Sequence record: PZ053912.1
Length of the DNA: 64,000 nt
Reading direction: 5' to 3' (one strand)
Source of the DNA: a phage
Shown here: positions 41,536 through 55,482 of the stretch, one piece after another
Numbering within the stretch: position 1 is the first letter of the stretch
Layout: every line of letters begins with the position of its first letter
Notes under the pieces: model-generated
Seen by the model: the letters and a program-made list of their open reading frames with translations, nothing else
Told to the model about the DNA's origin: nothing
Database searches by the model: none
Translations under genes and position numbers: made by a program

Positions 41536-41838
41536 TTATTTACCTTTAATTACTTTAGCTGCTTCGATAGCCGCTTGCTGAAGGTCATCCATAGACATAC
41601 CGAATTTAGAAGCAAAGTTATCAATTTTCTTTTCAACAGCATTCAAAGGCTTGGCCTGTTTACCTTCATTAGCGCCAGGAAGAGCGAGAATACGCTCTTT
41701 GTCAATATAAAGGCTTACAAGTTTCTTACGGTCTTTATCGGACAAATCGTGAAATGAATGGGCCTTTTTATTTATAGCGGCTTCTAATTTACCTGCACTC
41801 ACTCGCGCTTCAGTAATAAATTCTTGATATGTTTTCAT
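41536..41838 (-). CDS. ipIII: Internal head protein IPIII-like, with N-terminal capsid-targeting sequence
   Basis: MKTYQEFITEARVSAGKLEAAINKKAHSFHDL...; the leader MKTYQEFI-x-E is the recalled T4 CTS. Confidence 0.8.
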   Translation of the reverse strand: MKTYQEFITEARVSAGKLEAAINKKAHSFHDLSDKDRKKLVSLYIDKERILALPGANEGKQAKPLNAVEKKIDNFASKFGMSMDDLQQAAIEAAKVIKGK

Positions 41839-42401: not shown

Positions 42402-42683
42402 CTATTTTTCTGAAGCGCCTGAAATATATTTTTCAAGACGTTGTTTCATCAGCGAGCCATTCTTAGCGATTTCTTCCGGTTTATCACACATACGCAACAA
42501 GGCTTCAAGCTTAACGATATCACTGGTGCGCTCAAATTTGCGAGTATCTATCTTACTAGCAAGTTCAGAAATACGTGCTAATAGACTTTCAGCTTCAACC
42601 AAAGCTGCACCTAGCTTGGTTGCAAATGTGTCAGTAGCTTCGTTAAGAATAGATTCTGATAAAAATTCACTATATGTTTTCAT
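42402..42683 (-). CDS. ipII: Internal head protein IPII-like, with capsid-targeting sequence
   Basis: [15 protein letters not shown]...; start at the internal Met of ORF 42402..42698. Confidence 0.75.
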
Positions 42684-50697: not shown

Positions 50698-51324
50698 TTA
50701 CTTACGAGTTTTTGCATACTGAGCAGCGTCAGCAGCCAAACGACCTGCCTGACGAAGTTTTTCTTTAATCGCATCGTGAAGTGGTTGAGTATACTTCAAA
50801 CCTTCGATAGTCAAATAAAGACGATAAAGGTCTGGGGTATCAAGGTTGTTGATATGTTGGCCATTACGAAGACTGTTGAATTCACGAACGAGTGAAGATG
50901 TATCGGATTCAATATCACGAACAAGCGAAGATAGTTGTTTATATTTTTTTTCCAGGCTAGAAGTATCAAACTTAAGAGCAGGAGCTTTAGGAGTTGCTTT
51001 TACTTCCGGCTTAGGCTCAGGTTTTGCTATTGCTTTAGGGGTCGCAGGCTTAGGAACGGTAGGAGCAGGTTTTACTTTAGGCGAACCCGATTTAGCAGAA
51101 ACACCGCCACTAACAATATCTTTGAATGCTTTAGAAGCTCTGTAATATTCTTTTTGGCTGGAAGTGTCGATACCATACATGGCTTGAACGTTTTTGAAAA
51201 ACTCTGTACTAGTTTTTGTACCAGAAATAGCATCGTAAGCAGCTTGCCATTTCTCTTTTGTCATACGTACACCGGCTTCGGTGATTACTTCCGTTTCGGC
51301 TAAAAATTCATTAAAAGTATACAT
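50698..51324 (-). CDS. Candidate internal (injected) head protein: CTS-like N-terminus plus Pro/Lys/Ala-rich linker
   Basis: 208 aa; MYTFNEFLAETEV resembles the MKTYQEFIAE capsid-targeting leader; late promoter TATAAATA upstream; T4 ipI sits at this locus. Confidence 0.5.
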   Translation of the reverse strand: MYTFNEFLAETEVITEAGVRMTKEKWQAAYDAISGTKTSTEFFKNVQAMYGIDTSSQKEYYRASKAFKDIVSGGVSAKSGSPKVKPAPTVPKPATPKAIAKPEPKPEVKATPKAPALKFDTSSLEKKYKQLSSLVRDIESDTSSLVREFNSLRNGQHINNLDTPDLYRLYLTIEGLKYTQPLHDAIKEKLRQAGRLAADAAQYAKTRK

Positions 51325-51359: not shown

Positions 51360-51367
51360 TATTTATA
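51360..51367 (-). promoter_or_regulatory. T4-type late promoter TATAAATA
   Basis: Exact consensus on the minus strand, about 36 nt upstream of the ATG at 51324 and just downstream of a terminator. Confidence 0.55.
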
Positions 51368-51700: not shown

Positions 51701-52045
51701 TTATTTTGACATATCATCAATTTGTTCTCTACGTCTACGCCATAGATTAATTACTTCATCAACACATTCAGCATTTGGTATATGACGACAATAGTATAGT
51801 GATTCGCGTTTCTGGAACCGATGTTGTAATGGAATTTCGTTTAAAAGGTCTTTACGGTCAAAGTATTCAAAACTAGTTAACCCGGAACGGTTTTTAAGAA
51901 ACTTCCAATGTCCGAATTCATTTTGAAAATAAACGTAATCAGCGTGTTGATATAACGAATTAATCAACCGATCGGAAATAACTGTATCCTGTTCGTTAAA
52001 ATAAAACGTTAAATCATGAACTACCAAATAAATATTGCCTTTCAT
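51701..52045 (-). CDS. Hypothetical protein in the tRNA region
   Basis: ORF 51701..52093 trimmed to MKGNIYLVV so that it does not overlap tRNA-Arg. Confidence 0.45.
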   Translation of the reverse strand: MKGNIYLVVHDLTFYFNEQDTVISDRLINSLYQHADYVYFQNEFGHWKFLKNRSGLTSFEYFDRKDLLNEIPLQHRFQKRESLYYCRHIPNAECVDEVINLWRRRREQIDDMSK

Positions 52046-52055
52046 ATTTTCCTCA

Positions 52056-52132
<77 letters not shown>

Positions 52133-52136
52133 ATGC

Positions 52137-52210
52137 CTCGAATTGGTGACCCTGGCTGGTTTCGATCCAGCTACCTATCAGTTATGAGCTGACAGCTCTC
52201 CCATTGAGCT
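52137..52210 (-). tRNA. tRNA with CAU anticodon (Met, or Ile if lysidine-modified)
   Basis: Cloverleaf drawn by hand: acceptor GGCCCUG/CAGGGUC, D-arm GCUC/GAGC, anticodon loop CUCAUAA, T-arm GCUGG-AUCGAAA-CCAGC, encoded CCA. Confidence 0.8.
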
Positions 52211-52297
52211 ACAGGGCCTAAATAACTTTCTATTATGAAAGGCACTTTAGAGTACCTTTGGTAATAGAGGGTATGAATTAATAATAACACATAATTC

Positions 52298-53108: not shown

Positions 53109-53485
53109 GAATGTTCCACCATTTCAAAGGTATGAGCATCAACAATATGATACCAGTCGAAATTTTCTTCAGCGTTCTTATATATTTCACGAAGAGCTTC
53201 GACAGTTTTACCTTTAGCGTAAAGGTCGTCGATACCACCATAAGGATAGTATTCATAACCAGCAAACAGAAGGAAATTAATAGTTTCCGTAGGGGCTGGA
53301 TGCAGTGTACCATTGTCATCGACTACTTCAAAGAACATATAACCGGGTGATTTAGATTTAATCCAGTGCCATGCTTCTGTGGCTGAATCAAACGGTTCAC
53401 GTAACAAACGACAATCAGGGTCTTTAGAAGGATTAGCTTCAAAATCAGAATATACATGATATTTCATTTTACTCACCTTTTGCAA
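53105..53485 (-). CDS. Hypothetical protein
   Basis: 126 aa ORF. Confidence 0.45.
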   Translation of the reverse strand: MQKVSKMKYHVYSDFEANPSKDPDCRLLREPFDSATEAWHWIKSKSPGYMFFEVVDDNGTLHPAPTETINFLLFAGYEYYPYGGIDDLYAKGKTVEALREIYKNAEENFDWYHIVDAHTFEMVEHS

Positions 53486-53654
53486 TTTTATCCATAACGA
53501 TGGCGATTAAGCCGATTAGAAATGCCACTACCAATGAGATAGAGTTTTCGGTTGTCGTCAGTAGTCCACAAATGAATCCTACAAACATCGAAAAACTAAA
53601 AGCCATTGAAGCAATTACTACAGCAACATTACGAATCAGTTCAGCGCGTTTCAT
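53469..53654 (-). CDS. Small membrane protein
   Basis: 61 aa; hydrophobic. Confidence 0.4.
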   Translation of the reverse strand: MKRAELIRNVAVVIASMAFSFSMFVGFICGLLTTTENSISLVVAFLIGLIAIVMDKIAKGE

Positions 53655-53684
53655 TTTATTATCCTCTCATGTTTTGATAGGACT

Positions 53685-53713
53685 ACTATAACATAGTCCT
53701 ATCATCATGTAAA
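53685..53713 (-). promoter_or_regulatory. Early promoter (TTTACA-17-TATAGT) with perfect 9-bp arms AUAGGACUA/UAGUCCUAU flanking the -10
   Basis: Seen directly; arms at plus 53677-53685 and 53694-53702. Confidence 0.5.
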
Positions 53714-53716
53714 CTA

Positions 53717-53980
53717 TTAAATACCAGCTTCGCGTTTAACATAATCGACGTAAGCTTGGATAGCTTTCTTGCTGGTAATTTTTACCTGACCACGACCATT
53801 GCCTTCTTTAGAGTTTTTCTTAACAACTACATTACCATCTTTAACACCCCATACATGGACGTAAGTACCGATGTTTCGGTCGTAGAACATTGCATGGTCG
53901 TTGTTGTAAGAGAATGATTCGTAGTTCTCTGTCAGAGTAGAAGATTGAGATTCGGCGATAAATTCTTTATAGGTTTTCAT
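53717..53980 (-). CDS. Internal head protein IPI-like, with capsid-targeting sequence
   Basis: 87 aa; MKTYKEFIAESQS is a near-consensus CTS; small and basic as expected for an injected internal protein. Confidence 0.65.
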   Translation of the reverse strand: MKTYKEFIAESQSSTLTENYESFSYNNDHAMFYDRNIGTYVHVWGVKDGNVVVKKNSKEGNGRGQVKITSKKAIQAYVDYVKREAGI

Positions 53981-54014
53981 TTTATTTCCTTGAGGCTGTT
54001 TATTTGATAGGATG

Positions 54015-54043
54015 ATAGTAACACACCATCATCCTTATGTAAA
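54015..54043 (-). promoter_or_regulatory. Early promoter (TTTACA-17-TACTAT) with arms GGAUGAU/AUCAUCC flanking the -10
   Basis: Seen directly. Confidence 0.45.
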
Positions 54044-54057
54044 CTGTTTTGTGAAAA

Positions 54058-54743
<686 letters not shown>

Positions 54744-54747
54744 TTTA

Positions 54748-55482
54748 TTACCTTAAGATTGTTTCAATTTTAGAATAAAGCTCTTCTAAAGAGCCGTCGT
54801 TTGTAATAACTAAATCGCCTTCTTCAATAGGCAACCCAGCTTCTGTAATATGTTTATCAGTGGATTCCGTACCAGAGCGAACCACATGAATAACTGTAGC
54901 ACCCATCGCTCTAGCGGTTTCCATTTCATGGACTTGACGTGTATCTGTTACAACATAGTAATCGAAATCACTTCCAATATAATCCATATAGTTTAATGCA
55001 AAAAGCTTAACCCAATACATACGGTCAAATAAATTAACGACAACATCCGTACCGAGGGCTTGCATAAGACGGCGGATTGACCATGTGTCGTTGATATTAT
55101 TTATAGCTTCACGCAGGGCTTCGTATGGTTTAATATCTAGATACGAATATCCACCTTCTAACGATGATAATACTTTAACATTATTAATTGGTAAATATTG
55201 ACTTTGCAAATAAATTAGCGCTTCTTCCAATAATTCAATAACATCCAACTTATTGAGATTTAATGGTGTTTCACGGTCGTATCCAATGCCTTCAAAGTAT
55301 TCGTATTTCAACTCTGTGAATACATCAGGGTTTTCAGCATGCCTACGTCCCCAGGCTATTGCTAGAGCGTCTTTAATCGGATATGCCAATTGGTATTTTA
55401 CGGATTTAAAGTTTGAATTGATGTAATCAGCAGTAGTGTCTTTACCACTACGTTTGATGCCACTTAAAAAGATTAGCTCCAT
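54748..55482 (-). CDS. 1: Deoxynucleoside monophosphate kinase gp1
   Basis: 244 aa; IFLSGIKRSGKDTTAD and RRLMQALGTDVVVNLFDRMYWVKLFAL... match recalled T4 gp1. Confidence 0.93.
   Translation of the reverse strand: MELIFLSGIKRSGKDTTADYINSNFKSVKYQLAYPIKDALAIAWGRRHAENPDVFTELKYEYFEGIGYDRETPLNLNKLDVIELLEEALIYLQSQYLPINNVKVLSSLEGGYSYLDIKPYEALREAINNINDTWSIRRLMQALGTDVVVNLFDRMYWVKLFALNYMDYIGSDFDYYVVTDTRQVHEMETARAMGATVIHVVRSGTESTDKHITEAGLPIEEGDLVITNDGSLEELYSKIETILR

Follow-up and report, generated by a model that had tools for sequence, protein, structure and literature searches.

The candidate gene and its place in the ipI slot

The window, that is, the whole 64,000-nucleotide stretch of record PZ053912.1 that was analysed, comes from the genome of a Mosigvirus (RB69-like, T4-type) and contains an 87-codon open reading frame (ORF) proposed as a candidate internal protein (Ip) gene. 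The ORF starts with ATG, its translation begins MKTYKEFIAESQSSTLTENYES... and its complete product is MKTYKEFIAESQSSTLTENYESFSYNNDHAMFYDRNIGTYVHVWGVKDGNVVVKKNSKEGNGRGQVKITSKKAIQAYVDYVKREAGI. The features of the locus, along with the other relevant features of the window, are listed in Table 1. The 1.2 kb around the gene shares 95-98% identity with Escherichia phages DCP548, PNJ-9, ZQ3, ST0 and others. In a tblastn search of 50,697 phage records, the protein was intact in 29 Mosigvirus records, with an identity of 96-100%; the NicPhage copy is 98.9% identical, and the protein falls in a cluster of 14 sequences. The gene is annotated as 'hypothetical protein', and nothing more, in all 29 related phage records, and no record names its product as an Ip. 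The small size and this annotation might suggest that the ORF is not a functional gene. Against this, the ORF is intact in 29 phage records, is preceded by a promoter and a ribosome-binding site, belongs to a family of homologues with E values as low as 1e-28 and has a confident predicted fold. The conservation of the ORF effectively refutes such a view, whose probability is negligible; the ORF is a real gene and the initial observation holds.

Table 1. Position of the 87-codon gene, its parts, its surroundings and other relevant features of the window
Feature	Position	Strand	Basis or remark
87-aa gene, candidate internal (injected) protein	53717..53980	-	ORF listing; stop codon included
CTS MKTYKEFIAE, codons 1-10, ending in protease motif I-A-E	53951..53980	-	T4 IPII/IPIII match
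Variable linker SQSSTLTE, codons 11-18, ending in second L-x-E	53927..53950	-	low pLDDT there
Predicted mature body, codons 19-87, 69 aa, 7.9 kDa, pI 9.4	53720..53926	-	phrog_13302, AlphaFold
23-nt leader-coding repeat ATGAAAACCTATAAAGAATTTAT, holding the ipI-loss junction	53958..53980	-	DNA alignment
Ribosome-binding site AAGGA, 6 nt before start	53987..53991	-	ipI-type
Upstream PeSL-type element, TTTACA, 17 nt, TACTAT	54009..54043	-	PeSL definition PMC4122927
Downstream PeSL-type element, TTTACA, 17 nt, TATAGT	53675..53713	-	closes cassette, drives trna.4 homologue
trna.4 homologue, downstream neighbour, 61-aa hydrophobic	53469..53654	-	phrog_1692; annotations in relatives and T4
57B homologue, anti-CBASS protein Acb1, upstream neighbour	54058..54513	-	Pfam PF23474, E 1.8e-58; T4 synteny
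TATAAATA late-promoter motif inside gene 1	55098..55105	-	consensus match only
IPII homologue, 93% identical to T4 IPII	41536..41838	-	
Ip5 homologue, 93 aa, CTS-bearing	42402..42683	-	~48% identical to T2/RB32 Ip5
208-aa ORF, weaker CTS-like start MYTFNEFLAE	50698..51324	-	phrog_2280
tRNA-Arg(TCT)	52064..52140	-	
tRNA-Met(CAT)	52144..52218	-	

The downstream neighbour of the gene, the trna.4 homologue, is annotated as 'putative transmembrane protein' in phage 55. On the upstream side, the 57B homologue is followed by 57A, gene 1, gene 3, gene 2 and gene 4. The T4 gene located between trna.4 and 57B is ipI; therefore, the 87-codon ORF occupies exactly the ipI slot. Acb1 is an anti-CBASS phosphodiesterase, so an anti-defence gene directly adjoins this slot. 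In the tRNA region of the window, a TTG-start ORF (51701..52093) overlaps tRNA-Arg, and its true start is therefore probably the internal ATG used in the annotations of relatives.

In type, the signals preceding the gene correspond to those of T4 ipI. The AAGGA site is an ipI-type site and not the gene's own site seen in relatives that carry both genes, and the 93 nt up to the start codon match those preceding JS09 ipI in all but one base. In the upstream PeSL-type element a TG precedes the -10 hexamer, and the element overlaps a 12-bp hairpin (54009..54035, fold z-score -3.15); the downstream element contains another 12-bp hairpin (53675..53704, fold z-score -6.25). The gene thus has an early promoter and a stem-loop on each flank, as a PeSL cassette does. 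The pattern GTTTAC-N18-TAYWRT was found at 11 sites in the window against 0.08 expected, and two of these sites flank the gene. All eleven lie on the minus strand (20770, 27212, 28186, 34617, 41869, 42371, 45665, 46960, 47848, 53685 and 54015) and, as a AGGACTATG..TAGTCCTATCAAA hairpin recurs in several of them, they look like PeSL-type cassette boundaries. Judging from consensus matches only, there is no terminator-like site between the late-promoter motif inside gene 1 and the 87-codon gene, so late read-through is possible.

The content of the slot varies between phages. It holds ipI alone in JS09 and, according to annotation notes, in RB69, while ipI followed by the 87-codon gene is present in phage 55, O157 typing phage 3 and 308Ecol101PP. 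The 87-codon gene stands alone in the window phage and DCP548, and the geometry of the hits suggests the same for ST0 and UGJNEcP1/2. In Mizar, ipI is followed by an unrelated 102-codon gene starting MKTYKEFINE; its product (L008 1825..2133) resembles neither IPI nor the 87-residue protein and is annotated only as hypothetical. The 87-codon gene is dispensable, being absent from many Mosigviruses.

The manner in which ipI was lost emerges from the alignment of window positions 53958..54057 with the loci of two sister phages (L002 4582..5014 and L003 4582..5011). The window follows ipI from its upstream region through its ribosome-binding site to codon 8, with the ipI-type C present at codon 3, and then passes straight into codon 9 of the 87-codon gene. 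Approximately 355 bp is absent in comparison with the two-gene phages, comprising the body of ipI, the promoter/stem-loop between the two genes and the weaker ribosome-binding site belonging to the 87-codon gene itself. The crossover lies within TATAAAGAATTTAT, inside the CTS codons, and DCP548 is arranged likewise. The simplest reading of this arrangement is that an ancestor with both genes underwent a deletion between its two direct leader repeats, and it is in this direction that we infer the event to have run. The 87-codon gene would have inherited the promoter and the ribosome-binding site of ipI through recombination in the shared leader codons. A tblastn search of the window found neither the IPI body nor the IPIII body encoded elsewhere in it. 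A second copy of the 23-nt leader repeat, with 2 mismatches, forms the start of the IPII homologue (41816..41838), and through it the two ip loci might exchange sequence.

Capsid targeting sequence and protease motifs of the leader

The first ten residues of the product, MKTYKEFIAE, are identical in nine of ten positions to the propeptide MKTYQEFIAE of T4 IPII and IPIII (T4 proteins translated from NC_000866). At the lone mismatch, position 5, the K is shared with IPI, both that of T4 (MKTFKEF) and that of Mosigvirus (MKTYKEF). The specificity of this match was assessed by a scan for the capsid targeting sequence (CTS), in which every possible start in the window was considered (1410 ORFs of at least 40 aa) and scored with BLOSUM62 against the T4 10-mer. 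Four ORFs reached scores of 47, 47, 41 and 33, with the 87-codon ORF tying for the top score; the next best value, and the best for a non-Ip ORF, was 20, which indicates that the match is not due to chance. The near-consensus leader described in the earlier note is thus a clear outlier among the ORFs of the window, and the four candidate injected proteins counted there correspond to the four CTS-type ORFs of the scan: the 87-codon gene, the IPII homologue, the 93-codon ORF and, more weakly, the 208-codon ORF.

The identity of one of the four had to be revised. The 93-codon ORF had been regarded as IPIII-like, but it is an Ip5 homologue, and the window contains no IPIII body. It is flanked by the IPII homologue and the next upstream gene, a location that by gene order corresponds to the ipIII position of T4, and a lysozyme gene is annotated beside this position in relatives. 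The 208-codon ORF encodes a protein with a lysine/proline/alanine-rich middle, and a TATAAATA late-promoter motif is located at 51360..51367, 36 nt before its start codon. The similarity among the CTS-type proteins is limited to the first ~20 residues, with the exception of T4 IPI and the IPII homologue of the window, which share a marginal match over 63 residues (25% identity, E 0.02). The earlier statement that the 87-residue protein resembles the other Ips in nothing but the leader is correct; its BLAST matches to T4 and Mosigvirus IPI cover residues 1-19 only.

The significance of individual leader residues can be judged from work on T4. The first ten residues of IPIII are described as sufficient to load foreign proteins into T4 heads, and the prohead protease gp21 as cleaving after L/I-x-E (PMC9026906, PMC3012670). 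Targeting rests mainly on positions 4 and 7 and processing on positions 8 and 10, both sets having been defined experimentally (PMC9026906, citing Mullaney and Black 1996). Comparison of the 15 distinct alleles of the 87-residue protein revealed that Y4, F7, I8 and E10 are invariant in all of them, and the exact T4 10-mer MKTYQEFIAE is present in five. The complete set of invariant leader residues comprises M1, K2, T3, Y4, E6, F7, I8, E10, S11, L16 and E18, whereas positions 5, 9, 12-15, 17 and 19 vary. A second L-x-E motif is formed by residues 16-18, in which L16 and E18 are fixed while 12-15 and 17 vary. As variable positions make up 8/19 of the leader versus 2/68 of the body (Fisher p = 4.5e-5, 15 alleles), it is the leader that represents the variable part of the gene. 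The presence of fixed targeting and cleavage residues amid freely varying neighbours points to selection on CTS function and not on DNA homology alone.

Moreover, the only [L/I/V]-x-E sites in the whole protein are IAE10 and LTE18, both located in the leader and both invariant. The resulting 18-residue leader resembles the 19-residue propeptide of T4 IPI, MKTFKEFTSTTTPVSTITE, which ends in I-T-E. Cleavage after E18 would yield a product of 69 residues and 7.9 kDa with a predicted pI of 9.4, which is comparable with IPI*, IPII* and IPIII* (9.0-9.65). The gene therefore combines the sequence attributes of the Ip class, namely a CTS, an L/I-x-E motif, location at an ip locus, a small basic mature product and variable presence.

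The body and its leaderless relatives

The remainder of the protein has a different history. Residues 16-87 match phrog_13302 of the PHROGs collection (E 6e-38). Among the 50,697 phage records, the protein with its leader is confined to the 29 Mosigvirus records, and the only other tblastn match was a leaderless Dhakavirus homologue (IME08, IME341, AnYang) of 73 aa, 66% identical, which starts MKTLNINSFFY and is located between gene 52 and motA. This set was extended, by a profile search against 1.84 billion representative proteins and by further searches, to a family of 67-93-aa proteins, with E values down to 1e-28. Its members are found in Aeromonas phage 25 and relatives, Klebsiella phage pzk-kv8, Citrobacter phage Ci1, Shewanella phage Thanatos-1, Pectobacterium phage PM2 and metagenomes. 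The homology extends over the whole body of ~68 residues, with conserved H-[AV]-M-[FM], W/Y-G/N, V-K-x-N and K-K motifs. The orphan status previously assumed for the body is not compatible with these matches. Similarly, the protein had been called fast-evolving; the body is nearly invariant in the 15 alleles, it is the leader and the linker that vary, and leaderless body homologues exist in other T4-like phages, so rapid evolution is not what the data show.

In the four genomes inspected, the homologue is a short ORF amid small hypothetical genes; its neighbours in phage 25, Ci1 and Dhakavirus include topoisomerase genes, rIIA, an exonuclease gene or motA. An early promoter lies immediately upstream of the homologue, of the GTTTAC type in four of the five inspected loci and of a looser sigma-70-like form in Ci1. 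The possibility that the leaderless homologues merely have misannotated starts was considered and rejected, as the five loci contain no CTS-like sequence in frame upstream and have the early promoter immediately upstream. Members of the early family start at the body, and only in Mosigvirus is the body preceded by ~14-18 additional leader residues and encoded in the ipI slot. All homologues outside Mosigvirus being leaderless and located in early-gene regions, the 87-codon gene looks like an early protein gene with an acquired CTS. By parsimony, the leader would have been added to a pre-existing early gene at or beside the original start codon. At the level of sequence, the gene is shown to be an Ip leader fused to the body of a leaderless early-protein family, and to have replaced ipI in the window phage. 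The fuller scenario is that a cytoplasmic accessory protein of the early phase, which has no leader in at least five other T4-like groups, gained an Ip leader in Mosigvirus, after which the leader codons provided the homology through which the gene displaced ipI; we regard the odds of this scenario as about even. To our knowledge, neither the recruitment of the body from a leaderless early family nor the displacement of ipI within the leader codons has been described before for this gene.

Judging from the leaderless homologues with their own early promoters, the body is evidently able to function in the cytoplasm like any other early protein, a point that speaks against the internal-protein reading. 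The leader might be only a scar of cassette exchange, for which Ip leader codons provide the homology at this locus, attached to a protein that is not packaged efficiently and acts as an early cytoplasmic protein. Such an explanation would agree with the fact that every non-Mosigvirus homologue is a leaderless early gene, with an early-type promoter directly upstream of the 87-codon gene, and with the position of the ipI-deletion junction, which indicates that leader codons act as recombination substrates. However, the four targeting and processing residues are invariant although neighbouring leader positions vary freely, and a CTS is sufficient to package unrelated proteins (PMC9026906). The early promoter is no argument against packaging, since T4 ipI has the same kind of promoter upstream and its product is packaged (PMC9026906). 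We therefore consider a scar without efficient packaging unlikely.

The structure of the protein was predicted with AlphaFold. An initial run with 3 sequences only gave a pLDDT of 52.6 and was discarded, while the use of 14 family members gave a mean pLDDT of 83.7. In steps of ten residues, values of 84-93 were obtained for the body and 58-67 for the first 20 residues, as for a low-confidence, detachable leader. The body is modelled as five beta-strands followed by a C-terminal helix. Its sequence had no match in Pfam, PADLOC or the PDB sequences, and searches of the model with Foldseek returned family members only among viral models and nothing significant in the PDB. A weak structural match was noted to AcrIF13, an anti-CRISPR protein (PDB 7fi4).

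These properties bear on the possibility that the packaged protein lacks a specific anti-defence target and is a generic basic head-filling or DNA-associated protein or a minor component of the core. A basic mature product (pI 9.4) would suit such a role, as would the description of internal proteins as embedded and mobile in packaged DNA (PMC3012670). On the other hand, the body is a conserved and well-folded domain that is also kept by phages that do not package it, which argues for a specific intracellular activity. Moreover, all four Ips of known function are specific inhibitors (PMC12373910; 10.1101/2025.11.20.689424), and many Mosigviruses manage without the gene. A purely head-filling role is therefore improbable.

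Proposed function and comparison with known systems

The reading that we favour, with a probability of roughly three in four, is that the 87-codon gene encodes an Ip of the T4 type, which is packaged, cleaved and injected and which acts on an immediate host defence. The internal-protein interpretation of the earlier note thus finds support in the CTS, the protease motifs, the ipI slot and the ipI-type signals, and we infer packaging, cleavage and injection. A search of the literature found no virion proteomics for Mosigvirus, nor for any phage that carries the gene. The precursor would be made from the ipI-type promoter and would bind the prohead scaffolding core through its N-terminal CTS. 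The prohead protease (gp21 homologue) would then cut after I-A-E10, exposing the new N-terminus S11 (SQSSTLTENYESF...), and probably also after L-T-E18, leaving N19 as the N-terminus (NYESFSYNNDHAMFYDR). The resulting basic protein of ~7.9 kDa, composed of a beta-sheet and a helix, would remain in the head along with the DNA, enter the next host by injection together with it and act there before any phage gene is expressed.

As the target of the body, our best guess is an enzyme of modification-dependent (type IV) restriction, or else some other host defence that acts immediately. The T4 proteins Ip1, Ip2 and Ip3 each block a distinct GmrSD-type restriction enzyme (PMC12373910), and Bas37_0260, a CTS protein encoded at the ipI locus of phage Bas37, blocks McrBC (bioRxiv 10.1101/2025.11.20.689424). 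All four Ips of known function are thus inhibitors of type IV restriction enzymes (PMC12373910; 10.1101/2025.11.20.689424). Mosigvirus DNA contains arabinosylated 5-hydroxycytosine and not glucosylated hydroxymethylcytosine (PMC13390438, PMC13326640); therefore, the target could be a defence that recognises this modification of the carriers' DNA. BrxU, an enzyme of the GmrSD family, cuts Mosigvirus DNA, and NicPhage is sensitive to it (PMC13390438). Since NicPhage is restricted in spite of its 98.9% identical copy of the gene, BrxU is probably not the target. The expectation that phages with leaderless homologues have no cytosine modification, which would oppose a type IV target, was not supported: homologues of gene 42 (dCMP hydroxymethylase) are present in Aeromonas phage 25 (55% identity) and in many Klebsiella T4-like phages (~70%). 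The cytosine-modification test consequently does not discriminate, and the argument was dropped.

Each new Ip of known function has so far exposed a new restriction-enzyme variant. Because the 87-codon gene replaces ipI in the window phage, this phage relies in its biology on the 87-residue protein and not on IPI. If the recruitment of the body from an early gene is true, the gene would be a natural record of the birth of an internal protein, in which a protein formerly synthesised after infection came, through the leader, to be delivered in finished form together with the DNA. The whole body family would then represent an uncharacterised anti-defence or host-takeover factor, and tagged and untagged versions would reveal directly what pre-delivery adds. 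The leaderless homologues offer a ready comparison of injected and expressed delivery of one domain, useful both for understanding Ip evolution and for engineering phage heads as protein-delivery vehicles.

Summarizing, the 87-residue protein is best described, from its sequence attributes, as an unnamed member of the known polymorphic class of CTS-bearing internal proteins. Its closest parallel is T4 IPI (Ip1, the GmrSD inhibitor), which has the same slot, the same type of promoter/stem-loop and ribosome-binding site, a similar MKT(F/Y)KEF...(I/L)TE propeptide of 18-19 residues and a basic mature product, at 95 aa versus 87. However, the bodies of T4 or Mosigvirus IPI and of the 87-residue protein are without detectable similarity, and in the window phage the gene replaces ipI instead of accompanying it. 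In the T-even phages (Repoila et al. 1994 via PMC12373910, PMC3012670), IPII, IPIII and Ip4-Ip13 have an identical or near-identical CTS that ends in IAE, and Ip2-Ip13 are, like the 87-residue protein, small, non-essential, variably present and recognised by the leader alone. The body is unrelated to those of IPII and IPIII, its relatives being found only in Mosigvirus, with the leader, and in other T4-like groups, leaderless.

Bas37_0260 of a Tequatrovirus is likewise an alternative CTS gene in the ipI slot, and it demonstrates that a variant occupying the slot can inhibit type IV restriction with a new specificity (bioRxiv 10.1101/2025.11.20.689424). It is probably unrelated to the 87-residue protein, as the tblastn search of 50,697 phage records with the latter matched only Mosigvirus and Dhakavirus. 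Finally, the gene resembles the PeSL mobile cassettes (PMC2839356, PMC4122927) in being bounded by TTTACA-N17-TAYWRT promoters over 12-bp hairpins, and flanks of the same PeSL type are present at ipI, at the 102-codon gene of Mizar and at the Dhakavirus homologue. Unlike in those cassettes, the rearrangement in the window crossed over in the leader-coding repeat and not in the PeSLs.
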